From the NCBI RefSeq assembly GCF_050320075.1, contig NZ_CP190018.1: a DNA stretch of 64,000 nt, one strand, 5' to 3'. Within the stretch, counting starts at the first letter, position 1, and the number at the start of each line of letters is the position of its first letter. Under the pieces are notes generated by a model. That model did no database searches and was not told the DNA's origin. It was given only the letters and a program-made list of their open reading frames with translations. Below, in pieces: positions 1 through 41,621 of the stretch. Source of the DNA: Escherichia coli. Lineage in GTDB: Bacteria > Pseudomonadota > Gammaproteobacteria > Enterobacterales > Enterobacteriaceae. The translations under genes were made by a program, and so were the position numbers.

Positions 1-2959
1 TTTTTGCCGTCAGCCGCCCGTCCGGTGTCAGGGAAAATGCCGGAGGATTACCGCCGCTGGTAATGGTGGGAGCCGTCAGATATTTCAGGAACACTTCATT
101 CATAAATATCTGATCGCCCTGACCAACAAACATCGGCTTTGTGTTGCCATTCGCAGGATTAATCATCGCAATCCTGTCTGCCGCCAGCAGCACCTGACTC
201 TGCATGCCGTCAGGGGTGTTTTCAATACCGGCACCAATACCCGCGATATAAAGGCGTCCGTCCTGCATCTGCTGCAGCTTCACAGCCCACATGCTGCTCA
301 GGTTATTATTTGTATCAACCTGAACCTTCTGTATCTGCTGGATCGCTGCACTCTGGTCTTCCAGTTTCTTATTGACGGTCTGCGTGATTTCATTGCTGAC
401 ATCCGTAATGGACGTCCTGATTTCAGCCAGGTCAGGCGCAAGCTGACCGTTATCAATCTGCGTCCACAGCTCCTGAGCCAGATGGGTTTTCCCTATCTCT
501 CCTTTGAAAAAATCCAGATAGCCGGATGCATCATCACTCGGCTGGCCAACAGCCTCCACAAATGCCGATTTGCCAACGGTGTTCACACTGCGGATGTAAA
601 AATAATAATCACGGCCCGGTTTGATATTGATACTGGCGGCTATCCAGTACAGCGCCGTGCCAAGATAGCGGGCTGTGGTTTCAACCTGCCTGATATCGGT
701 AATCCGCGTTTCCGAGAACCAGAACTCAAACTGTACCGTCGGATCATAAACCGCAAGATGCGGCGTGGCAGTTATCTGAAAATAGCCCGGCGTCAGCTCA
801 ATCCGCGACGGCGCTGCCGGTGCGGCAATCCGGAACGATACCGACGCCGGATCGCCCTGCTGCCCCCAGGCATTTGCCGCCCGGACTGTCAGCCTGTAGT
901 TTCCCAACGCCAGTTGCGTGAAGCGGTATGTGGTTTCCGTCGTCCGGGCCGTGCTGACCAGCCGCTCACTGCCGTCATCCGCTGCCACGGTCAGGCGAAG
1001 CATAAAGCTCACGCCCTTCACCACCTTCGGCGTGTCCCAGCGCGCCAGTACCTGATATTCCCCGCTGTCTGCGGTGACTTCGGCAGTCAGGTGCTGCACC
1101 GCTGGCGGCGTGACACCATTCACCGTGCCACTCTGGTCGCCGTCAAAGTGCGCCCCGTTATCCACGATGGCCTCTTTTTCCGGCACATGCTGCACAGCGG
1201 TGATGGCATACGTGCCGTCGTCGTTCTCACGGATACTCACACAGCGGAACAGGCGCTGACGCAGCATCGGCAGCTTCAGCCCCCACACGCTGTATTCGGC
1301 AACGCCGTCAGGAACACGGCTCACTTTTACCTTCACGCCGTCGGTGACGGACTGGACCTCCACGCTCACCGGATTACCCTGCCCGTCAACCAGGCTTATC
1401 AGCGTGGTACCGGAGGATGGCAGCGTGATTTCACGGTCGAGCGTCAGCGTCCGGGTCTGGCTGTTCACCGCCAGCACGCGACCACCGATGCTGATACCGG
1501 CATAGTCATCATCACAGATTTCAATGACATCGCCCGGTACATGGCGAAGCCCTTCGGCACCCACGCTGAAGTCCACGGTCTGCGTTTCCAGCAGTTCCGT
1601 TTTAATCAGCCACAGCCCGGCGCGGTGCGCCTGCCCCCGGCTGGTACAGCCAAAGGCATCCATCTTCGTGACGTTACGACCGTAACGGAGAATGGCCTGC
1701 GTATCTTCAACAAGCTCTGTCGCCGTCTCCCAGCCGTTATTCGGGTCAATCCAGTTCACCTCAACGGCATTATGGCGGTCCTTCAGGGCGCTGAAGCTGT
1801 AGCGGAACGGCGCGCCATCATCCGGCATCACCACATTACTGTGGTTATAGGTCCACACCTTATCCGACGGTCGGTCCTGCACGAACGTCAGCGTCTGCCC
1901 GTTCCATACCGGCATACAGCGCATCGCCGAACAGAAATCACTGAGCACATCCCACGCCTTACGCTGTGTGGTCAGCCAGGCATTACAGGTGATGCGCGGC
2001 TCCGTACCACCAAAGCCATCCGGCACTGACTGATCGCAATACTGGCCGATGACATACAGCGCCCATTTGTCCACATCCGCCGCACCAAGACGTTTCCCCA
2101 TGCCGTAGCGCGGGTGGGTCAGCATATCCCACAGACACCAGGCCATGTTGTTGCTGTATGCCGGTTTAAACGTCCCGTCCCAGATACCGCTGTATTGCCG
2201 CGTCTGCGGGTTATAGTTCGATGGCACCTGCAGAATGCGCCCGCGAAGATGATAATTACGGCTCACCTGCTGGCTGCCGAACTGTTCCGAGTCCACCTGC
2301 ACGCCGACCAGTGCCGTGTTCGGGTAGCACTGTTTCACATCGATGATTTCAGTGTATGACGACCAGAGCGTTTTGTTCTGCAGCTGGTCTGTGGTGCTGT
2401 CCGGCGTCATCCTGCGCATCCGGATATTAAACGGGCGCGGCGGCAGGTTACCCACCACCACCGATGCCAGATACTGTGAGGTGGTTTTGCCTTTAATGGT
2501 GATGTCTTTTTCCGTCACCCAGCCACCGTTACGCTGTATCTGAACCAGCAGGCGGACTTCCGACGGATTCCGGTCCCCCTTTGAGGTGGTTTCCACCAGT
2601 GCCTGCACACCGAAGGTAAAGCGCAGACGGTCGATGTTTGCAGACGTGATGGTCCGGGTAATCGGCGTGTCGTACTTCACTTCCGTACCCAGCACCGTCT
2701 CGGAGCCGGAGGATTCAAATCCCTCCGGCGGTGTCTGCTCCTGCTCACCTGCCCGGAAAACCACCGTGACACCGGAGATATTGGTATTCCCCTCACTGTC
2801 CAGCACTGGCGTACTGTTCAGCAGCACACTTTTTAATCCGTCCACCGGACCTTCAATCGGCCCTTCACTGATGGCGTCTATCACGCTCAGCATCTGCGTG
2901 GACTTCAGGTTGTCCTTCGCTTCGCGCGGGGTATGCCCCTTACTGCTGCCTTTACCCAT
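1..2959 (-). CDS. J: Tail tip / host specificity protein J (N-terminal ~986 codons; 3' end beyond window)
   Basis: Reverse translation from ATG at 2959 reads [43 protein letters not shown], matching the lambda gpJ N-terminus; not in ORF track because the stop lies outside the window. Confidence 0.9.
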
Positions 2960-19678: not shown

Positions 19679-20155
19679 TTATCTGAGGCATTGCTCTCGA
19701 ATGTATAGCTGTGCCCCTTCAAGTTGTTTTTGCATTATTATCAGTCGCGCTCTGAGGGTGAAATAATCCCGTTCAGCGGTGTCTGCCAATCGGGGGGAGG
19801 CTGCATTATCCACGCCGGAGGCGGTGGTGGCTTCACGCACTGACTGACAGACTGCTTTGATGTGCAACCGACGACGACCAGCGGCAACATCATCACGCAG
19901 AGCATCATTTTCAGCTTTCGCATCAGCTAACTCCTTCGTGTATTTTGCATCGAGCGCAGCAACATCACGCTGACGCATCTGCATGTCAGTAATTGCCGCG
20001 TTCGCCAGCTTCAGTTCTCTGGCATTTTTGTCGCGCTGGGCTTTGTAGGTAATGGCGTTATCACGGTAATGATTAACAGCCCATGACAGGCAGACGATGA
20101 TGCAGATAACCAGAGCGGAGATAATCGCGGTTACTCTGTTCATTGCTGACCCCAC
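19679..20155 (-). CDS. Rz: Spanin inner-membrane subunit Rz (i-spanin); likely true start near 20143
   Basis: (...)[59 protein letters not shown]... matches lambda Rz. Confidence 0.9.
19741..19923 (-). CDS. Rz1: Spanin outer-membrane lipoprotein Rz1 (o-spanin), embedded in Rz in the +1 frame
   Basis: 60-aa [63 protein letters not shown]: lipobox LVVVGC and proline-rich segment as in lambda Rz1. Confidence 0.88.
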
Positions 20156-20637
20156 AAACAGATTTCACGCTCAATCTCACGACGAGTCATGAGACCTTTC
20201 CATTGCTTACCGCCAGCATATGTCCAGCGACGTAACTGATCACATGCGCCTTTGATATCGCCCTGGTTTATTTTGCGAAGAAGCGTCGATGTTCTGAAAT
20301 TGCCAGCACCCACGTTGTAAACGAATGAGTAAAGAGCGCCGCGCGTTGTTTCCGGTATATCGACTTTGATGTACGGGTTAATTTGTCTGGCGACAGTGGC
20401 AAGGTCTTTATTCAAGAGTGCTTTGCATTCTGCTTTGGTATACGTTTTACCGAGCATGATGTCTTTTCCTGTATGCCCGTGACATACAGTCCATACACCA
20501 ACAATATCTTTGTATGGTATGTAGCTGACACCCTCCAGACCATCGTTACCACCTGGACCAGTGATTAACACTGATGCTATAGCAATTGCTCCGCCACCAA
20601 TAGCAGCAGCAACGGCTTTTCGTAATGATGGAGGCAT
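20140..20637 (-). CDS. R: SAR endolysin (T4-lysozyme-family muramidase with N-terminal signal-arrest-release domain), phage-21 R type
   Basis: 165-aa [60 protein letters not shown]...: Gly/Ala-rich weakly hydrophobic N-terminus followed by a lysozyme core; not the lambda R transglycosylase. Confidence 0.88.
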
Positions 20638-20852
20638 TATTCACCTCTCGCAGCCTTGCGCTTATCTTCTTTAATCTTGAAATAAAGGTTTGTCAGGTAC
20701 GTCAGCAGGCCAAATACCAAGCTACCCAGCACACCTATTGCTGCCCACTGTGAGGGCGTGACTTTATCGAGCAGCTGTAAAAACCAGTAGCCAGCACTGC
20801 CTGCGGAGGTGCCGTAGGCAATGCCCGTTGTTAACTTATCCATGGATTTCAT
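20637..20852 (-). CDS. S: Pinholin S (class II, two TMDs, dual-start motif MKSM), phage-21 S type
   Basis: 71-aa [74 protein letters not shown] directly upstream of the SAR endolysin. Confidence 0.88.
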
Positions 20853-21045: not shown

Positions 21046-21627
21046 TCATGTCTTTTCTAAAAAAAATCTTGATGAATATTGATGGGGAGGAACACCAAAA
21101 TATCTTCTGAAAACACTTACAAAATATGACGTGTTTTCATAACCGCATATCTCAGCAACTTTTCCAACAGAATATAAATTGTAGCTTAATAACCTTTCCG
21201 CCATCACCATTCGCTCTTCAAGAATTAACTTACTAAATGATAAGCCTTCGTGCTTTAATTTTCTTTTTAACAGACTTTCACTCAGATACAGTCTTGAAGA
21301 TATATCACAAAGTCTCCATGCTGCAGATATATCCGTGTGAATAATAGCCTTAACTTTACTTCCTAAACTATTAAGACATCCAAATAAAAAACTTTGCACT
21401 ATTTTCTCTGAAGATAAGATAGCAAGACATGCAAGTGATATTTGATTTCTAACAAAATCCACAGTTCTGCCATCACAATTCAAGCATGCAATCAAGTTCT
21501 TTAACAATGAAAAATCTTCACATTCCACCATCAAGTATGCCGGATAAAACCTTCTTACAGAAAAAGGTGAGAGTGTGTTGCTTTTAAAGAAATCATTAAC
21601 TGTTTTCTCTTCAACATCTACGATCAT
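21046..21627 (-). CDS. AraC-family transcriptional regulator (prophage cargo)
   Basis: 193-aa ORF with C-terminal AraC-type HTH region (...LSYNLYSVGKVAEICGYENTSYFVSVFRRYFGVPPHQY); ~30% GC. Confidence 0.75.
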   Translation of the reverse strand: MIVDVEEKTVNDFFKSNTLSPFSVRRFYPAYLMVECEDFSLLKNLIACLNCDGRTVDFVRNQISLACLAILSSEKIVQSFLFGCLNSLGSKVKAIIHTDISAAWRLCDISSRLYLSESLLKRKLKHEGLSFSKLILEERMVMAERLLSYNLYSVGKVAEICGYENTSYFVSVFRRYFGVPPHQYSSRFFLEKT

Positions 21628-22121
21628 TGCATGATCTATATTTGATGAAAAAAATCTTTTAAATTTTAATCAATGAGAACAGCACTTCCTTTTTTAAATA
21701 AAATATCTTCTTTACCAATTCGGACATCAAACGAGTTCAACACCAAAATGATAGAACATATGTATGGCATATTATCCACCTGATATCATTGGGGTTACAC
21801 CAAGTAAGTATAGGTGGAAAATCAATATTCGCCAGTTCAACAATAAGGAAAATCTCATTGCATCACAAGTATAAAATTATGTATTTAACTCACAAAGACA
21901 AATTATTAAACCAATCTGTTATATTATATATAGCTGCGTGGAATCATAATATTATATATTTTGACTGGCATGTTTACCAACTTTAAGTTGCATCTCAATG
22001 GTTTCTTCAGCGTAAACAGAGTTTTTATACAAACTGACACTCTGGGTATCATAGTGTAGTTTTTACGATTGTAAATATCCTGCATGCAGGAACTCATCCT
22101 TTTGGATGATATCGCATACAA

Positions 22122-23081
22122 TTAATTTACCATCAGTCTTAGAGCCAGTTCGTCCGGATAGGGATCGAAGTAATTCTGTGTAAGCAAGTAATCATTAGGA
22201 TACTCACCCAGATAATGCTTCAGCAGAGTCAACGGCGCAAGAAGAGGTAATGTGCCAGAACGATAGTTAAGTATAACCTCGCTCAACTCTTTACGCTGGC
22301 GTGTACTTAAGTAGTTACTAAAATACCCCTGTATATGCATCATCACATTCGTGTGATTTTTACGTGATGCAGGTTTTCTGAGAATCGCCATCAGCTTATC
22401 ACGATACACCTCAAAGTATGATTCAAGGTCCGCCCACTCGTGTATTGCAGCCACAAATGGTCCCATATCTTTATAGCCTGCCTGACTATGCGCCAACAAC
22501 TGAAGCTTATAACGACTATGAAAAGCTAATAACTCTCTTCTTGATAATTTCTCCTTGTAAAGGTGATTGAGCTCATGCAAAGCAAAAACTCTTTCAACAA
22601 AATTCTCACGAAGCACTGGATCATGTAATCGCCCATCCTCTTCAACCGGTAGCCAGGAAAACTTTTCCATCAAAGTGCTCGTAAATAGTCCCACTCCATC
22701 TTTACGACCTCGATTACCATTTTCATCATAGACACGCACGCGCTCCATGCCACAGCTGGGAGATTTAGCACAAACCACAAACCCCGATACATCCTTTAAT
22801 TTGTCCATATAAGAACGACTAAACTCTGTCATTCTCTCTGTCACATCCTCATTCTGGTCGTGGCTGAAACACATCCGTATATTTCCTTGCGTCGAGCGCA
22901 CAAGACGTAGAGCAGGACGCGGAACTGGCAGCCCTATAGCCATTTCCGGACATACTGGTCTGAATGTTACCCATTCCACTAATTTGTCCATTAAAAAGTC
23001 AGCTCTTTTGTGACCACCATCAAAACGAACAGCAGAACCGGCCAGACAACCGCTGATTCCAATCACAGGTTTTTTTATCAT
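22122..23081 (-). CDS. DUF523/DUF1722 (YbgA-like) family protein, Cys-rich N-terminal half (prophage cargo)
   Basis: 319-aa ORF MIKKPVIGISGCLAGSAVRFDGGHKRADFLMDKLVEWVTFRPVCPEMAIGLPVPRPALRL... resembles YbgA-type DUF523-DUF1722 proteins. Confidence 0.7.
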   Translation of the reverse strand: MIKKPVIGISGCLAGSAVRFDGGHKRADFLMDKLVEWVTFRPVCPEMAIGLPVPRPALRLVRSTQGNIRMCFSHDQNEDVTERMTEFSRSYMDKLKDVSGFVVCAKSPSCGMERVRVYDENGNRGRKDGVGLFTSTLMEKFSWLPVEEDGRLHDPVLRENFVERVFALHELNHLYKEKLSRRELLAFHSRYKLQLLAHSQAGYKDMGPFVAAIHEWADLESYFEVYRDKLMAILRKPASRKNHTNVMMHIQGYFSNYLSTRQRKELSEVILNYRSGTLPLLAPLTLLKHYLGEYPNDYLLTQNYFDPYPDELALRLMVN

Positions 23082-23273
23082 ATCCTCCCCCTTGACTAAT
23101 TCATTAACACATAAACTGTGTAGTGCACGGAATAAATTGCCTTTCTGGCGTCATCACTGACAATTTTTCTGTTATGGACTATTCCTAATATAGTATGAAA
23201 GTTCTTTAAGTGATCGGTCGTAATCATCTATCTTTCATACTTACTCTCAACTATCAAAAGTACAGGATTTATT

Positions 23274-23798
23274 ATGAAGTTATGGCCTGTGTTGACTGGC
23301 ATTGCACTCTCTTTCACTCTTATAGCATGTAAGGCCCCGACACCACCTAAAGGTGTGCAGCCGATTACAAATTTTGACGCCAACCGCTACCTCGGAAAGT
23401 GGTATGAAATAGCTCGCCTCGAGAACCGGTTCGAACGTGGTCTGGAACAGGTCAGCGCTACTTATGGAAAACGGAACGACGGAGGGATTCGTGTACTTAA
23501 CCGTGGATACGATCCAACGAAAAATAAATGGAGCGAGAGCGAAGGTAAAGCATACTTTACTGGAGATACTAAAACTGCAGCGTTGAAGGTTTCGTTTTTT
23601 GGCCCCTTCTATGGTGGCTATAATGTAATCAAACTGGATGATGAGTATAAGTATGCTCTTGTCAGTGGTCCGAACAGAGAATACCTATGGATTCTGGCAA
23701 GGACCCCAACTATTCCAGATAAAGTAAAAGCAGACTATGTGCGAACCGCTCAAAAGTTGGGATTCAATGTCAATGAATTATTATGGGTTAAACAATAA
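23274..23798 (+). CDS. Bacterial lipocalin (Blc-like outer-membrane lipoprotein) paralog (prophage cargo)
   Basis: 174-aa ORF with lipobox LIAC and NFDANRYLGKWYEIARLENRFERGLEQVSATYG...KVSFFGPFYGGYNVIKLDDEYKYALVSGPNREYLWILARTPT, closely resembling E. coli Blc. Confidence 0.85.
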   Translation: MKLWPVLTGIALSFTLIACKAPTPPKGVQPITNFDANRYLGKWYEIARLENRFERGLEQVSATYGKRNDGGIRVLNRGYDPTKNKWSESEGKAYFTGDTKTAALKVSFFGPFYGGYNVIKLDDEYKYALVSGPNREYLWILARTPTIPDKVKADYVRTAQKLGFNVNELLWVKQ

Positions 23799-23835
23799 AA
23801 TCCCTACCCGAAATAATACTTATTAGAATAAATAT

Positions 23836-23859
23836 CCTCCGGCATAGCCGGAGGTTTTT
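23836..23859 (+). terminator. Rho-independent terminator downstream of the lipocalin gene
   Basis: CCTCCGGCATAGCCGGAGG hairpin followed by TTTTT. Confidence 0.7.
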
Positions 23860-23865
23860 CAAATG

Positions 23866-24575
23866 CGCCTATAAGGCTCTCTTACCAGCCGCGCCCTAAC
23901 AGGCGCACACGATCTGACATTTGCATCCAACTTCGTTACTTACGGCCCGTAAACGGGCTGCCCGGATAGGGAATCGATAACTGCTCTCCCATTTTATCCT
24001 CTTCAAGCTGGTGCTTTATGTAGTCCTGTATCTTCGCCGTGTTCTTACCCACCGTATCGACATAGTACCCTCGGCACCAGAACTCCCTGTTTCTGTATTT
24101 GAATTTCAAATCCCCAAACTGCTCGTAAAGCATCAGACTGCTTTTCCCTTTCAGATATCCCATAAAGCCGGATACGCTCATTTTGGGTGGGATTTCCACA
24201 AGCATATGGATATGATCTGCGCAGCACTCTGCTTCCAGAATCCGTACGCTTTTCCACTCACACAGCTTTCTCAAAATACTGCCTATCGCCCTACGCTTCT
24301 CTCCGTAAAACGCCAGTCTTCGGTATTTCGGCGCAAAAACTATGTGATATTTACAGTTCCAGCGGGTGTGCACTAAGCTCTTTTCGTCCCCCATTGGGAC
24401 CCCCTTTTGATTTCTTGTTTGACACTTGCAGTTGCCAGACCGCAAGGTGTTTTAACAAATCAAAAGGGGTTTTAATAACTGGCTCAAAGCTGAAAGCTTT
24501 CCGGAACCCCCAGCCTAGCTGGGGGTTTTCTGTGCACAAAAAAACCAGCCTTTGGGGAGGCTGGCTAAATCAGGA
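23866..24575 (-). mobile_element. IS200 insertion sequence (boundaries approximate)
   Basis: Contains the IS200 TnpA gene plus end hairpins (GGCCCGTAAACGGGC near 23945; CCCCCAGCCTAGCTGGGGG and CCAGCCTTTGGGGAGGCTGG near 24500..24570). Confidence 0.8.
23936..24394 (-). CDS. tnpA: IS200/IS605-family Y1 (HUH) transposase TnpA
   Basis: MGDEKSLVHTRWNCKYHIVFAPKYRRLAFYGEKRRAIGSILRKLCEWKSVRILEAECCADHIHMLVEIPP... matches IS200 TnpA (152 aa). Confidence 0.93.
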   Translation of the reverse strand: MGDEKSLVHTRWNCKYHIVFAPKYRRLAFYGEKRRAIGSILRKLCEWKSVRILEAECCADHIHMLVEIPPKMSVSGFMGYLKGKSSLMLYEQFGDLKFKYRNREFWCRGYYVDTVGKNTAKIQDYIKHQLEEDKMGEQLSIPYPGSPFTGRK

Positions 24576-24664
24576 AACAAGCTGTTATATGATAATAACT
24601 ACGTTGCGATTCCAACATTTAAAATGTTAGACTAATGAGAATCAGACAGCAACTTTTCCTTTAA

Positions 24665-25057
24665 TTATTTCGAACAATCAGCATCCATCTCCAATCGGAG
24701 ATCCAACACCATCAGCATACCCTCCACTACGCCCTCAGCTTTCTGGAGCATCCTGCCAACCCAACAATCAGATCGCCCATGCTTACGTGCAAGCGCCATA
24801 AAAGTCATGCCGCCGACATAATAGTCCACCAATAAATCATGCAAATCGCTGTTGTTCTTTTTCAGACGGGCCATGCACCCGCAAATGATCATCGCGTCAT
24901 CGTCACAACATTGTGGGCGAGATTTTACTTTTGAAGGAATTAATCCCTTAAAACCGGCGGCAATGGACGACCAGGTCACATCTTCATGATTATTAGCCGC
25001 CCACGCTCCCCAACGCTCAAGAACCATCTGAATATCACGCATCAACTTACTCCACAA
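24665..25057 (-). CDS. Late-gene antiterminator Q (phage-82 / DLP12 QuuD type); possible start at the MRDIQM Met
   Basis: ORF (MWSKL)[62 protein letters not shown]... resembles QuuD. Confidence 0.8.
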
Positions 25058-27905: not shown

Positions 27906-29432
27906 TCAAAAATAAACCTCACCATCAACCATATATTTGAGAGTACTTATCGCCTGCTGGGCGGATATTATTTTCATTAAAGGATAGTGTTTAAAAACAA
28001 TGCCATTCATAAAATAGATATCACAGGTTTTATTATCTGTATTGATTATGATTTTTTCGAATGTTTTATAGGCAAGTGTACGACATAGCTCTCGCCCATT
28101 TTTACTGGTTAAGTCAATAGCATGAAAATCACCAAGTGAACTCACCGCTTTACTCTTCAAAGTTTTTAATGATACAGAAGCCCTTCGTAATTCCTTATCT
28201 AATACTCTGATTTTTTCTGCTATAGCGGTAACTTCAGGCGCAACAGATAATGCAGCAATTAAATTATTAATTTTCATCTGGAGCTCAATAATTTTCAACT
28301 CTAAAGTTTCATTAGCATCTTTCTTGTTTTCAACTGGTTGGATTTTACTACAATTAAAAAGCAACTCATTAATGATATTATAATCAACCAAATCTCTCTT
28401 TATTGATGGCCTGTCACATCGATGCAGTCTTCTCATCGGACAAACATAATAGCCATGCAAACTTCCAGATACCGCATGAACAATCATGGTATTACCACAA
28501 GCCTCGCACTTCATAACTGTTCGAAGTAGATTTATCAACATAGGATTTTTGCTACTATTGCTAATACCAAAAGGTGCCAACCGAATTTCCTGCACAGCGT
28601 AAAACAAATCATCTGATATGACTCTGGGATAATAGCCAGCGATTTCACTTATTCCTTTACCTCTTGCACGATATGAAGGTACGCATATACCTATCAGAGC
28701 TTTATTCGCTAATAATTTTTCAATTACAGAAGGTCCCCATGCACTTTCTTTTCCTGAGAAATTCTTTACAGCATGATCATTTAAATACTTGGCTATTGCA
28801 TTCAATGAGCGCCTTTCCATCCTGAGTTTAAAAATTAGCTCAATAGTTTTCACCCTGTCGGGGTCTGGAACAAAAGCCGTTCTTTTGTCATCCAATGAGA
28901 GCCATCTCGGACAAGACGCCGTCATAATCGTGCCTGACTCCAGTGCATCCTGCCGTTTTTTCTTCCATGATAATTTAACCCGACTTGACTTTATCTCGCT
29001 TTCTTCATTTGCCCTTTGTGCTATAAGTATGGCTTTTATTAATGAATATGGCTCATTCAATGAGTCAATATTATAGACTGTATTATCGCAAAGAGTTATA
29101 ACATCAATACCGTGATTCAAAATCAATTTCAGACGCTCAATCGCTTCACCGACTTTTTCTCTTGAAAGTCTGTCCAGACTTTCAACTAACAATGTAGTCC
29201 CTGGCAATATATAACCATGTTCTATAGCATCTAAAAATTCCGAAAAAGCTCCTGATTGTGCATGCTTTCCATTGAATGCGCTTAACCCCAAATCTTCATA
29301 CGTTACGGTATCAAGGTAATAATCACTATTTACCTTTAGCCATTCAGTAATAAGCCTTCTCTGGCGGTTTAATGAATCACCAGACATCTGACCTGGTGAT
29401 GAAAATCGCATATATGCTATGGCTTTTTTCAT
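27906..29432 (-). CDS. Large serine recombinase (resolvase/invertase catalytic domain plus recombinase and Cys-rich zinc-ribbon-like domains), DLP12 YbcK type
   Basis: 508-aa ORF MKKAIAYMRFSSPGQMSGDSLNRQRRLITEWL... (catalytic Ser in RFSSPGQ) with downstream CEACGN...CPMRRLHRCDRP cysteine cluster; low GC. Confidence 0.85.
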   Translation of the reverse strand: MKKAIAYMRFSSPGQMSGDSLNRQRRLITEWLKVNSDYYLDTVTYEDLGLSAFNGKHAQSGAFSEFLDAIEHGYILPGTTLLVESLDRLSREKVGEAIERLKLILNHGIDVITLCDNTVYNIDSLNEPYSLIKAILIAQRANEESEIKSSRVKLSWKKKRQDALESGTIMTASCPRWLSLDDKRTAFVPDPDRVKTIELIFKLRMERRSLNAIAKYLNDHAVKNFSGKESAWGPSVIEKLLANKALIGICVPSYRARGKGISEIAGYYPRVISDDLFYAVQEIRLAPFGISNSSKNPMLINLLRTVMKCEACGNTMIVHAVSGSLHGYYVCPMRRLHRCDRPSIKRDLVDYNIINELLFNCSKIQPVENKKDANETLELKIIELQMKINNLIAALSVAPEVTAIAEKIRVLDKELRRASVSLKTLKSKAVSSLGDFHAIDLTSKNGRELCRTLAYKTFEKIIINTDNKTCDIYFMNGIVFKHYPLMKIISAQQAISTLKYMVDGEVYF

Positions 29433-29687
29433 GGTGACACCTGCTAAAGTATGCTTTTATAAACCTTAGTGGTGAGATATGATTTTTGTTTAATTTTTAT
29501 TTAAAAAGACAATTAAGGTCACATTATCTTGAATATACAACAATAATCGTATTGCAATTTTCTTACACCATAATCTTGAAAGCACAAAAGAATGAATAAA
29601 AACTAAAGACATTAACAAAAAGCATAAAACGAGGCCCATATAAATATACGAACCTCCATATTTTAGTCGTTTAAAAACAAATTATTT

Positions 29688-30020
29688 TTAATGTGGCGTG
29701 CTTCGTGACAATAAATTAATAACCAACACACCGGCACAAATCAACATCATGCCTATAATGGCTGGCAGGTCCAATCGTTGGCCGAAAAATCCCCATGATA
29801 GTAAGCTAATCAGGACAATACCGACTCCTGACCAGATAGCATAAGCAATCCCTGTAGGAATATAAGCCAGCGTCTGAGCTAATAACCAGAATGATGCACA
29901 ATAACAAATAATTGTACCAACAGATGGCCATAACCGTGTAAAACCTTCTGAAAACTTCATTAAGGTTGTACCAATGACCTCTGCAAGTATTGCACCACCA
30001 AGATAAATATAAGGATTCAT
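29688..30020 (-). CDS. emrE: Small multidrug resistance (SMR) efflux protein EmrE
   Basis: MNPYIYLGGAILAEVIGTTLMKFSEGFTRLWPSVGTIICYCASFWLLAQTLAYIPTGIAYAIWSGVGIVLISLLSWGFFGQRLDLPAIIGMMLICAGVL... essentially identical to E. coli EmrE (110 aa). Confidence 0.95.
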   Translation of the reverse strand: MNPYIYLGGAILAEVIGTTLMKFSEGFTRLWPSVGTIICYCASFWLLAQTLAYIPTGIAYAIWSGVGIVLISLLSWGFFGQRLDLPAIIGMMLICAGVLVINLLSRSTPH

Positions 30021-30087
30021 AGCATATTCTTTCCTGTTCAAACTGGAGAGAATTGTACTACAGTTTGAACTCAACTCACCTGTTTCA

Positions 30088-32904: not shown

Positions 32905-33008
32905 TTCCTATTGGTATTACAATGAATGGATAATAGCAATGCGTATTAATCCAATCAATAGCAAAACGTGTTTTGACCATCAATACGCAAGCGTATAAAT
33001 TAAAACTT
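32905..33008. promoter_or_regulatory. Immunity-region divergent promoter/operator region (OR equivalent) with ATACGC/GCGTAT half-sites including the palindrome ATACGCAAGCGTAT (32983..32996)
   Basis: AT-rich 104-bp spacer between divergent cro-like and cI-like genes; repeated half-sites seen in sequence; operator assignment is inferred. Confidence 0.5.
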
Positions 33009-33701
33009 ATGAAAAAAGAAACTCTTGCTGATCGCTTAAACCTAGCGATGGAACAATCTGGAATGTCTCAAGGCGCTCTTGCAAAGGCGTCTGGCGTAGC
33101 TCAACCCACAATCTGGAGACTGACAAGCGGCAACGCACGCGGCTCAACAAAAATTGTTGAAATAGCTAATGCATTGGGTGTTCGAACAGAGTGGCTCTCA
33201 TCAGGCATAGGCCCGATGAGAAATGACGGTCAACAATCAGGGAAGCCTGCTGTCAACCATTCCAAATACTTCAAAATTGACGTTCTTGATATAGAAGTCA
33301 GTGCTGGGCCGGGTGTCATCAACCGTGAGTTTGTAGAAGTCCTACGCTCGGTTGAGTACTCGTTTGACGATGCTCGTCACATGTTCGATGGCAGGAAGGC
33401 AGAAAATATCCGCATCATTAACGTACGCGGTGACAGCATGTCAGGAACGATCGAACCAGGTGATCTTCTGTTCGTTGATATCACTGTTAAATCTTTCGAC
33501 GGTGATGGTATCTATGCGTTTCTGTACGACGACACAGCCCATGTAAAGCGCCTGCAAATGATGAAGGATAAGCTGCTGGTTATCTCTGATAACAAGAGCT
33601 ACTCACCGTGGGACCCGATCGAAAAAGACGAAATGAATCGGGTATTTATATTTGGGAAAGTTATTGGGAGTATGCCACAGACATATAGAAAACATGGGTA
33701 G
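33009..33701 (+). CDS. CI-type prophage repressor (N-terminal HTH, C-terminal S24 LexA-like autopeptidase domain)
   Basis: MKKETLADRLNLAMEQSGMSQGALAKASGVAQPTIWRLTSGN... plus C-terminal RGDSMSGTIEPGDLLFV...VKRL motifs and a candidate Ala-Gly cleavage site (VSAGPG); not lambda cI. Confidence 0.88.
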   Translation: MKKETLADRLNLAMEQSGMSQGALAKASGVAQPTIWRLTSGNARGSTKIVEIANALGVRTEWLSSGIGPMRNDGQQSGKPAVNHSKYFKIDVLDIEVSAGPGVINREFVEVLRSVEYSFDDARHMFDGRKAENIRIINVRGDSMSGTIEPGDLLFVDITVKSFDGDGIYAFLYDDTAHVKRLQMMKDKLLVISDNKSYSPWDPIEKDEMNRVFIFGKVIGSMPQTYRKHG

Positions 33702-33807: not shown

Positions 33808-35415
33808 ATGGATATGTCAAAAAAAATTTTTGAATTCAAAAATTACCCAATAGTCTTTATTGGCTCAGGCATTTCAAAAAGATATTTAGAGAACTACCCA
33901 ACGTGGGAAGAGCTATTAAACGAGTATTGGAAAATAACAAATCCCACAAATGATTTCTATAGTTATCTTTTAACAATAAAAGAATCACATAAAAATAACA
34001 GTGATAATGATATCGATCATAAGATTTATACAGAGGCAGCAAGTAAAATTGAAAATGATTACAATCTATTGTTTAGGACTGGCAAATTAAAATTAAATGG
34101 ACTAGATGCCAAGAGGGTTTTTAGTGAAGATATTTCACCATTTAAATACGCCATATGCCAAAGATTTTCTAATAACACAATCAGAAAGGATGTAAATCTT
34201 GATGAATTAGCATCATTTAAAACATTAATAAAAAAGGCCAAGATAATCATCACTACAAATTATGATGCTTTCATAGAAAATTTACTTCAAGAGCAAAATG
34301 TAACTCCAAAACTCTATATTGGAAATAATGGTTTTTTCGAAGATACTATTGGCTGGAGTGAGTTATACAAAATACATGGTGATATAAAGGATCCACACTC
34401 AATAATCATAAATAAAGATGATTACGAAAAATATGACAACAAATCTATACTCATTAGTGCCAAGATACTATCTAACATGATTAAAAATCCAATAGTTTTT
34501 CTTGGATATTCTTTAACTGACAGGAATGTAAAGAAACTTCTTTCTGATTTTTCCTCACAACTACCTAGAGAAGATGGTCGAAAATCAGCTGAAAGAATAA
34601 TTTTGATTGAATATAAAGAGAATGAACAGGAAGTAGTACCAAAACAGATTACCGATCAACAGCTACAAATTACATATACATCTGTTAAAACAGATAACTA
34701 TAAACAGATCTATGATGAGATCAGTGCTGTTGATGAAGGGCTCTCACCTTATGATGTTTTAAGGTATCAAAGAGCCATTAAAACACTTATCATTAATGAG
34801 GGTGAAAAAGGGCACTTAGATACTCTATTGGTTTCACCTTCTGACTTAGACAGACTTGAAGAAAGTGTTAAACAAGGAAAAAATTTAGTTGTTGCTCTAG
34901 GCGATAAAAAGTATGTATTCACACAAGTTAAAGAAATAAATTATCTTGAAGACTACTTATTTAATAAAAATGAAATATCTAATAAATTAGCTATAGATTT
35001 CATATTAGGTTCAGTAAACTCATTACAACTTCCATTTTCAAAAACTATAACCTCATGTAATTTGAAAGAGTTAAGTTTGCCAGCTAAATATGTGTTAAAA
35101 CTAAATCAACGCATTGAACGCCACGGAAAACTAGACGACTTGCTCAATAAAATCACCTTAGATAAAATCAATGCAAATAAAATTTACACCAACATCAAAG
35201 ATATAAAGGATGCAAAGTTCAAAAAGTACAAAGAATTGTCTATAGTCATTAAGAACATAAAAAATATCCCCAAAGAGGAGATTGAAGATTATGTTAAAAA
35301 AGAAGCGTTTGTTCAATTCAAGGCATGCGACGTTGACAATTTAAAAACCCAGTATAGGAAACTATTTCTTGCCTACGACTTGTTGATTCATGGAAATGTT
35401 GAAAAGATAAATTAA
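33808..35415 (+). CDS. SIR2-like (sirtuin-family, SIR2_2-type) domain protein with uncharacterised C-terminal half; candidate single-gene anti-phage defence protein in the rexAB-equivalent position
   Basis: 535-aa ORF, about 28-30% GC; motifs FIGSGISK (res 17-24), IIITTNYD (N151), YKIHGD (H190), IVFLGYSLTD (229-238) with Asn-His spacing of 39 as in defence-associated SIR2 domains; directly downstream and co-oriented with the repressor. Confidence 0.7.
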   Translation: MDMSKKIFEFKNYPIVFIGSGISKRYLENYPTWEELLNEYWKITNPTNDFYSYLLTIKESHKNNSDNDIDHKIYTEAASKIENDYNLLFRTGKLKLNGLDAKRVFSEDISPFKYAICQRFSNNTIRKDVNLDELASFKTLIKKAKIIITTNYDAFIENLLQEQNVTPKLYIGNNGFFEDTIGWSELYKIHGDIKDPHSIIINKDDYEKYDNKSILISAKILSNMIKNPIVFLGYSLTDRNVKKLLSDFSSQLPREDGRKSAERIILIEYKENEQEVVPKQITDQQLQITYTSVKTDNYKQIYDEISAVDEGLSPYDVLRYQRAIKTLIINEGEKGHLDTLLVSPSDLDRLEESVKQGKNLVVALGDKKYVFTQVKEINYLEDYLFNKNEISNKLAIDFILGSVNSLQLPFSKTITSCNLKELSLPAKYVLKLNQRIERHGKLDDLLNKITLDKINANKIYTNIKDIKDAKFKKYKELSIVIKNIKNIPKEEIEDYVKKEAFVQFKACDVDNLKTQYRKLFLAYDLLIHGNVEKIN

Positions 35416-35919
35416 ATAAACGCCCCGTACAAAGCGATGGCGGGGCTAATAAGTCATTTATGTATCATTTAGCAACTGACTAAAAAAATACACATAAGAA
35501 CTCAGACTACCAATATTCGATTAAATTTGCTGCCAACCTACCGAGCTCACCACAACCCGATGCCCCTCTGTCACGAGGCACATTAAAGCTGTACAAATTT
35601 CAGCCACACCAATAAGTCTTCATACTCTTTTTTATAAAAATTCATTTAATTATCAATCAGAACAAGTATATCAAACATTATCAATACTAATTGCTATTGA
35701 CTACACCAATAGCTATTGCTATTGTCATGCTATTGCATCGATGTTGGTATCACAAAATTTATAACTTCACCGTTGCGATGACCGCTTAGATCCGCAGCTT
35801 GAATTTCAGCAGGCTCCGGGGAGTGCGAGGGGTGAAGCGGACGCGTGAACGTCGGTGTGACCAGCTGAAATCAACTCAACACTTCATACCTCAGTCGCTT
35901 CAACGAGGCGACTTAGTTA

Positions 35920-36209
35920 TGACAACCGGCGGCCATCCACCGCCTGAATACGCGCAGAAGTCTCTATATGTTCAGCAGCCCAGCTTACGGGCAGGAGTTT
36001 TTATGGTTCATCAACATTACGGAACGCAGACCGTTAATCGAGGTGCGGTCATGCCAGGAATGCTGGTCAAACACAAAGATGGTACCTGGACTGCATCAGC
36101 TAATTTACGCGGACGGCTATATCTGCATCGCGGCATCGAGCGCACTTATACCCGTGATTTGCTCGTGGAAGTTTTTCTCGACGGACGCGGTAACGGCCTG
36201 AATCACTAA
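35920..36209 (+). CDS. Hypothetical protein (96 aa from ATG; a TTG-initiated 136-aa version starts at 35799)
   Basis: [38 protein letters not shown]... with upstream GAGG; sits where lambda has N-ral-cIII-kil but resembles none of them. Confidence 0.35.
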
Positions 36210-41606: not shown

Positions 41607-41621
41607 TTAGTATAAAAAAGC
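41607..41621. other. attL core (15-bp lambda att core, GCTTTTTTATACTAA on the minus strand) with the P' arm toward int
   Basis: Plus strand TTAGTATAAAAAAGC at 41607..41621; P'-arm sequence (minus strand ...GTTGGCATTATAAAAAAGCATTGCTTATCAATTTGTTGCAACGAACAGGTCACTATCAGTCAAAATAAAATCATTA) at 41534..41606; host ybhC-side sequence to the right. Confidence 0.85.

Follow-up and report, generated by a model that had tools for sequence, protein, structure and literature searches.

A complete IS200 element directly behind the presumed late terminator of a lambda-like prophage in Escherichia coli

The stretch of E. coli DNA which we have analyzed (64,000 nt, the window) contains a complete IS200 element, inserted directly behind the first intrinsic terminator downstream of the antiterminator gene Q in a lambda-like prophage. 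The insertion leaves this terminator intact, and its position agrees with a target preference shared by nearly all the IS200 copies we have collected, a hairpin followed by a run of T. We consider it probable that a standard IS200 entered by peel-and-paste insertion behind a Q-controlled terminator, that the site was set by the target preference of the element and that the insertion is near-neutral for the phage.

The window matches the chromosome of the urine isolate E. coli Ec-U3 (NZ_CM192149.1) with 100% identity. The prophage occupies the attachment site of lambda, with ybhC on one side and ybhB/bio on the other. One copy of the attachment core, GCTTTTTTATACTAA, is located at 41607–41621, and the second one lies 49.8 kb away, just past the left edge of the window, a distance which corresponds to the length of the prophage from core to core. 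The cos packaging range of lambda is roughly 38–51 kb; the prophage with its IS200 still fits in it. The rightward-early and the late genes are on the minus strand, in the order O/P, ren, a DLP12-like nin region, Q, a block of cargo genes, holin-lysozyme-Rz, terminase, head and tail.

The boundaries of the element have been established by comparison with phage IdasGreatGrand (PP925829), whose region from Q to blc is 98.4–99.5% identical to the flanks in the window and does not contain IS200. Alignment with this empty site shows a 711 bp insertion at 23827–24537, on the minus strand; a placement at 23829–24539 is equally valid, given a TT/AA ambiguity of 2 nt at the junctions. When read on the late strand, the empty site of IdasGreatGrand is GGCTGGTTTTTTT joined to CTAATAAG, and the uninterrupted sequence is GGCTGGTTTTTTTCTAATAAG. 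The filled site in the window is GGCTGGTTTTTTT, followed by IS200 (GTGCACAG...GGATATTTATT) and then by CTAATAAG. The difference between both sites is exactly the 711 bp of IS200, with no target-site duplication. The identity of the element and its insertion point are thus directly observed. Other IS200 copies from E. coli give the same limit: their match to the window ends exactly at 23827. IS200 is present only once in the 64 kb window, and copies from other loci in E. coli share 99.9% identity with it.

These limits differ from those in the initial annotation, 23866–24575, which are shifted by about 38 bp. That interval takes in 24538–24575, which is the phage's own hairpin and T7 terminator, also present in the empty site, and leaves out 23827–23865, which contains the real right-end hairpin (23836–23854) and the ATATTTATT tail. 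Hairpins exist at both ends of IS200, as had been proposed, but the one cited for the right-hand side (24545–24564) belongs to the phage. The hairpin at 24545–24568 has accordingly been rejected as a part of IS200, since the empty site contains it too. The ends of IS200 are easily mis-called beside a host hairpin, as happened in this case, and comparison with an empty site is the remedy.

The element contains one open reading frame of 152 amino acids and no tnpB. This frame is tnpA (23936–24394, minus strand), coding for a Y1 transposase of the HUH type, annotated as WP_001550720.1; the NCBI pipeline PGAP calls the same gene IS200/IS605 transposase in E. coli Ec-U3. The protein matches the Pfam family Y1_Tnp (PF01797) with an E value of 8e-37. 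In an alignment with the IS608 TnpA, a transposase whose structure has been solved, its H61-I-H63 motif falls on the catalytic motif DHIHIL and its Tyr125 on QYI. The Pfam match, the HUH and Tyr125 residues, the STnc490 leader described below and the 711 bp insertion confirm the presence of an intact IS200 with a 152 amino acid TnpA, as initially suggested.

On the minus strand, the left end of IS200 is found at 24537 (5'-GTGCACAGAAAACC...) and the right end at 23827 (...GGATATTTATT-3'). The two ends, GTGCACAG... and ...GGATATTTATT, are not inverted repeats, and each of them has a subterminal hairpin. The left-end hairpin (24505–24527, minus strand) corresponds to nucleotides 11–33 of IS200 and has a 10 bp stem with a predicted folding energy of -19 kcal/mol; only two U residues come after it in the late direction. 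A hairpin at nucleotides 12–34 of IS200 has been described as a bidirectional rho-independent terminator against impinging transcription (Ellis et al. 2015, PMC4513863). The right end (23827–23854, minus strand) consists of the hairpin CCTCCGGCTATGCCGGAGG at 23836–23854 and the 9 nt tail ATATTTATT. Its folding energy is -15.9 kcal/mol (z -4.5), and a terminator scan gives the hairpin followed by AUAUUUAUU a terminator-like score on the late strand.

The leader between the left end and tnpA (24404–24527, minus strand) matches the Rfam family STnc490 (RF01405) with 146 bits, the gathering score being 56. Its predicted fold hides the ribosome-binding site, in agreement with a published description (PMC4513863). 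The Rfam match is on the tnpA strand, opposite to the published art200/STnc490 small RNA, which is antisense to the leader of tnpA; the Rfam model seems to describe the sense strand here.

The element is identical in kind to the IS200 of Salmonella and E. coli, including variants such as IS200C. They share a size of about 0.7 kb, a 152 amino acid Y1 HUH TnpA, the left-end terminator, a leader which sequesters the Shine-Dalgarno sequence and includes STnc490/art200, and the right-end hairpin; they likewise have no inverted repeats and no target duplication. Only the location behind a phage late terminator is particular. To judge from its sequence, this is a standard, intact and apparently functional member of the IS200 group in the IS200/IS605 family. 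The element and its RefSeq annotation are already known.

The sequence next to the left end is an intrinsic terminator of the phage (24538–24566, minus strand). It has a GC-rich stem of 6 bp, CCAGCC/GGCTGG (24545–24564), or 9 bp when the flanking A-U pairs are included, with a predicted folding energy of -14.4 kcal/mol, and a U7 tract at 24538–24544. It is located 98–127 nt after the stop codon of Q, it is the first intrinsic terminator after this gene and it is conserved in the empty site. The left end of IS200 begins directly after the last T, so the hairpin and the full U7 tract are kept. The comparison with the empty site therefore shows intact IS200 ends and a target formed by this hairpin and its U7 tract.

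We infer from its position alone that the hairpin at 24545–24564 is tR', the terminator which controls late transcription in lambdoid phages. In such phages the constitutive promoter pR' follows Q closely, and in lysogens transcription from it ends at tR' unless Q is present (PMC7547250). The Q gene of the prophage (24665–25042, minus strand) codes for an antiterminator of the Q21/933W family, identified by PGAP and by a match to PF06530 (E value 2.5e-51). It is only distantly related to the structurally studied Q21 protein (PDB 6P18/6JNX, E value 1.9e-8).

By analogy with lambda and with Stx phages (PMC7547250), pR' and the Q-loading site would be expected in the interval between Q and the terminator (24567–24664, minus strand). 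A consensus scan of this interval, together with inspection of two alleles, has given no convincing sigma-70 promoter, the single weak candidate overlapping the end of Q. A scan and inspection of the same two alleles have revealed no direct repeat for Q binding. The arrangement shares with the pR'-tR' switches of lambda (6S RNA), StxS and Q21 the presence of Q, an intrinsic terminator within about 100–130 nt and co-oriented late genes downstream. It differs from them in that the terminator is followed by IS200 and 3 kb of cargo, instead of lysis or toxin genes, and in that the scan has located neither the promoter nor the Q-loading elements.

In order to define the target of IS200, we have collected the sequences which flank its left end in 31 IMG/VR contigs containing the exact left-end pattern, in four E. 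coli chromosomal sites and in the relatives of the window. They give 24 distinct flanks from about 22 sites. Each flank was examined for two features directly next to GTGCACAG: a stem of 5 bp or more, including 3 or more GC pairs, and 5 or more T among the final 8 nt. They are found together in 21 of the 24 flanks; of 5000 positions drawn at random from the same loci, 0.42% have both. The other three flanks still have either a hairpin or a T-run. Each of the 24 ends in TT, and the junction lies 6–9 nt past the GC stem. This geometry is that of the right end of IS200 itself, a hairpin and a 9 nt tail ending in TTATT.

The genes found upstream of these copies are diverse: nuoN and sra in the chromosome, and genes for Lom, the tape-measure protein, gpD, integrase and an antirepressor-like protein in prophages. 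Where the upstream gene can be read, tnpA usually has the same orientation. Two IMG/VR contigs (L022, position 8186, and L035, position 13452) have IS200 after a gene for a lambda-type head decoration protein (PF02924), in the middle of the head operon. Their site, a strong hairpin followed by CTGATT, is among the few which do not have a T-run. None of the IMG/VR copies we have collected is found at the same terminator as in the window.

Target preference alone explains why IS200 is found behind the terminator, an observed regularity. It also accounts for orientation: tnpA is co-directional with the late transcript because the target is a hairpin and T-run on the same strand, so the agreement is no coincidence. 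The sequences of these flanks suggest that structure and sequence both contribute to the target. A base-pairing guide at nucleotides 7–10 of IS200, recognizing a TTNTT target by analogy with IS608, has been considered and dropped, as the variable middle base is unfit for simple pairing. The initial annotation had taken the insertion as a mark of a recombination hot spot between Q and the lysis genes; targeted insertion is a better reading, since the left ends of IS200 nearly always abut a hairpin and a T-run.

These results agree with what has been established for IS608 and ISDra2, which belong to the same family: insertion takes place on single-stranded DNA, with the left end placed 3' of a short specific target (PMC5027513). 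IS200 shares with them transposition as a single strand, subterminal hairpins bound by TnpA and the conserved catalytic residues. It differs from both in lacking tnpB. The target of IS608 is a bare tetranucleotide, TTAC, while the sites described here are a hairpin and a T-run ending in TT. The IS200/IS605 family also prefers the template of the lagging strand (PMC5027513). According to the GC skew of the adjacent host DNA, the top strand of this IS200 is the lagging-strand template, as the family rule predicts. This strand call also rests on the known map position of the lambda attachment site.

A recent preprint (10.1101/2025.07.22.666184) reports that sequences similar to intrinsic terminators are strongly over-represented directly upstream of insertion sequences, most of all in the IS200/IS605 family, a signal which agrees with our 21 of 24 flanks. 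That survey is statistical, at the level of families, and takes the signal as a means of keeping transposase expression low; it describes neither a phage tR' as a recurrent site nor the resemblance between the target and the right end. It was the only published statement of an IS200 target given by a full-text literature search which did not cover the classic IS200 papers. The principle that IS200 lies behind terminators is at least partly known already.

The same site has been filled in other strains. Among 5426 complete E. coli genomes, up to 1070 have the empty junction of the module formed by Q, the terminator and blc. The filled junction is observed in four records, which correspond to three strains: Ec-U3, 22AH104 and CB7286, the last one deposited twice. 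There are two alleles of this module, about 5% apart. In the allele found in the window, the empty site has seven T, and the filled site has seven T before IS200 and none after it. In the CB7286 allele, the empty site has eight T (a 100% match over 602 nt is found in many genomes), and the filled site has seven T before IS200 and one after it. Both filled alleles keep the flanks of their own haplotype up to the junctions, and their IS200 variants, which in CB7286 is IS200C, differ by 3.2%. The IS200 copies of Ec-U3 and 22AH104 differ in 9 nt (1.3%) and their flanks in 2 and 13 nt (98.3–99.7% identity), values which do not decide whether these two insertions are independent. Judging from these sequences, IS200 has probably hit the site at least twice, at the same distance from the hairpin.

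Another explanation is that the three filled alleles derive from one insertion, spread between prophage backgrounds by homologous recombination. Lambdoid modules recombine freely, and the near-identity of the Ec-U3 and 22AH104 flanks, with IS200 copies only 1.3% apart, is compatible with such an origin. Nevertheless, we find it rather unlikely for the three of them: in CB7286 the haplotype-specific flanks reach both junctions, the variant is a different one and the T count of each filled allele (7+1 in CB7286, 7+0 in the window) equals that of its own empty site.

The initial annotation had placed IS200 between Q and the lysis genes, with tnpA in the orientation of late transcription. The second statement holds, as the minus strand carries tnpA and Q as well as the lysis and morphogenesis genes; downstream of Q come the genes for holin, lysozyme, Rz, terminase, portal, head and tail. 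The first is correct in that IS200 is downstream of Q and upstream of the lysis and morphogenesis genes, but only loosely, because about 3 kb of cargo separate it from the holin gene. The cargo block (21046–23798) consists of a gene for a lipocalin similar to Blc (23274–23798, plus strand), a ybgA-like gene (22122–23081, minus strand) and a frameshifted AraC-like HTH gene (21046–21770, minus strand), which is intact in IdasGreatGrand, 22AH104 and CB7286. The lysis cassette (19679–20852, minus strand) comes next, with the holin gene essD at 20637–20852, lysozyme at 20140–20637 and Rz at 19679–20143; these are the first late genes which depend on read-through.

Other insertion sequences are found in the same cargo block. 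CB7286 contains IS2 between blc and ybgA (L004, 4239–5467), and strains GN02270 and 51489 have IS1 inside the lipocalin gene. On sequence grounds, the block between Q and the lysis genes is one which tolerates insertions. When read on the plus strand, the right-end hairpin of IS200 (23836–23860) is followed by TTTTT and becomes a canonical terminator for the convergent blc-like gene. When IS200 is absent, the hairpin which blc runs into is that of tR', with no T-run after it on the plus strand.

A few other features of the prophage may be mentioned. A 535 amino acid protein of the SIR2 family is encoded at 33808–35415 (plus strand), between a cI-like repressor gene (32973–33701) and kil, the position of rexAB in lambda. 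The protein matches PDC-S25, a candidate defence family of PADLOC, from end to end (E value 6e-236), with weaker matches to ThsA-like SIR2 proteins. Between this gene and kil (35415–36003) we have found no N-like open reading frame of at least 35 amino acids, nor does the annotation give one; this prophage may do without a lambda-type N antiterminator in its early operons. The nin region (27906–30074, minus strand) includes DLP12-like cargo, the multidrug efflux gene emrE and the 508 amino acid serine recombinase gene ybcK, and also a fragment of a P22AR C-terminal domain, antirepressor-like, with an internal stop. A 515 amino acid open reading frame (482–2029, plus strand) is antisense inside the tail-tip gene gpJ, which passes the left edge of the window, and is almost certainly not a gene.

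The most probable course of events combines this target preference with the activity of Q. IS200 would have inserted as a single strand, by peel-and-paste, directly 3' of the T-tract of a Q-controlled terminator, a target similar to the right end of the element itself, where ATATTTATT follows a hairpin. In the lysogen, short transcripts from pR' would still stop at the intact terminator, and any leak would next meet the left-end terminator of IS200. After induction, RNA polymerase loaded with Q would pass tR' and the two hairpins of IS200, cross the 3 kb of cargo and reach the lysis and morphogenesis genes. The late leader would then gain 711 nt, with tnpA as a passenger and little or no polarity. 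Q proteins of the Q21 type form a nozzle on the RNA exit channel; they stay in place for tens of thousands of nucleotides and keep terminator hairpins from forming (10.1101/651190). We infer read-through and the neutrality of the insertion from this knowledge of the Q family.

Several phages and prophages present comparable arrangements. The plaque-forming relative IdasGreatGrand has the same layout of Q, cargo and lysis genes, and its late transcript crosses about 3 kb of cargo, including the convergent lipocalin gene. In phage PhiR63_2, a co-oriented IS200 is found directly behind a terminator hairpin (GCAGGCC and T5ATT), in the gap between ren and ninB, upstream of the genes from ninB to Q. 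We take this site to be lambda tR2, by position and sequence. The GenBank record of PhiR63_2 names a propagation host, from which the phage is presumably viable; a full-text literature search found no paper describing it or its plaque formation. In other prophages, co-oriented IS200 copies are located inside late operons, for example between Lom and the side tail fibre or after gpD.

The initial annotation had also suggested that IS200 could attenuate late transcription and leave the prophage poorly inducible. Worked out in detail for this site, the proposal is that the left-end terminator, the structured leader and the right-end hairpin with its T-rich tail would stop a sizeable fraction of late transcripts despite Q, with poor lysis and small bursts as a result. 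It is favored by the reported terminator activity of the left-end hairpin and by the polar effect of the first IS200 insertion to be described (PMC4513863), and also by the terminator-like score of the right-end hairpin followed by AUAUUUAUU on the late strand. The rarity of IS200 in deposited phage genomes, with one seen in our search among 50,697, points in the same direction and could reflect selection against carriers. The prophages with a filled site also show other decay, with a frameshift in rusA in 22AH104, an additional IS2 in CB7286 and the AraC-like pseudogene in the window.

Nevertheless, an appreciable polar effect seems improbable to us. As IS200 lies downstream of tR', essentially the only polymerase which arrives is Q-modified and resistant to terminators, or else a leak which has already passed a canonical terminator, so strong attenuation of the late genes is unlikely. 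The block of hairpin formation by Q21-family proteins is processive (10.1101/651190), co-oriented IS200 copies are found in other antiterminated phage operons, including that of PhiR63_2, and the left-end hairpin has only two U after it in the late direction. We would thus maintain a near-neutral insertion as the preferred reading.

We consider it very unlikely that the insertion is mildly useful to the lysogen, by adding a tandem terminator which cuts the basal leak from pR' and by giving the blc-like gene a terminator with a T-run: pR' is indeed constitutive and stopped only by tR' in lysogens (PMC7547250), tandem hairpins now exist at 24545–24564 and 24505–24527, the right-end hairpin is followed by TTTTT on the plus strand and the same site is filled in three strains, but only 4 of about 1070 records of this module contain IS200, with no sign of selective spread, and target preference alone accounts for the position.

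In summary, the insertion, set by target preference and probably near-neutral, is of little consequence for the Ec-U3 genome: the phage genes and the late terminator are left intact. As IS200 lands behind intrinsic terminators and in the same orientation, it would rarely be harmful, and a copy can sit in an antiterminated phage operon. A bolder proposal, to which we assign only a slight chance of being correct, is that IS200 uses intrinsic terminators as a structural landing signal, with the tR' of Q21-family phages as a repeated target and the one terminator at which arriving polymerase turns terminator-proof, and that read-through by Q transcribes the otherwise silent tnpA leader as strongly as the late operon at induction, amid abundant single-stranded DNA from replication; expression and transposition of IS200, and its spread in virions, would then be coupled to induction. 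IS200 is notoriously inactive in the laboratory (PMC4513863). If induction does drive tnpA transcription from copies such as this one, it would provide a testable trigger for an element which has resisted laboratory activation.
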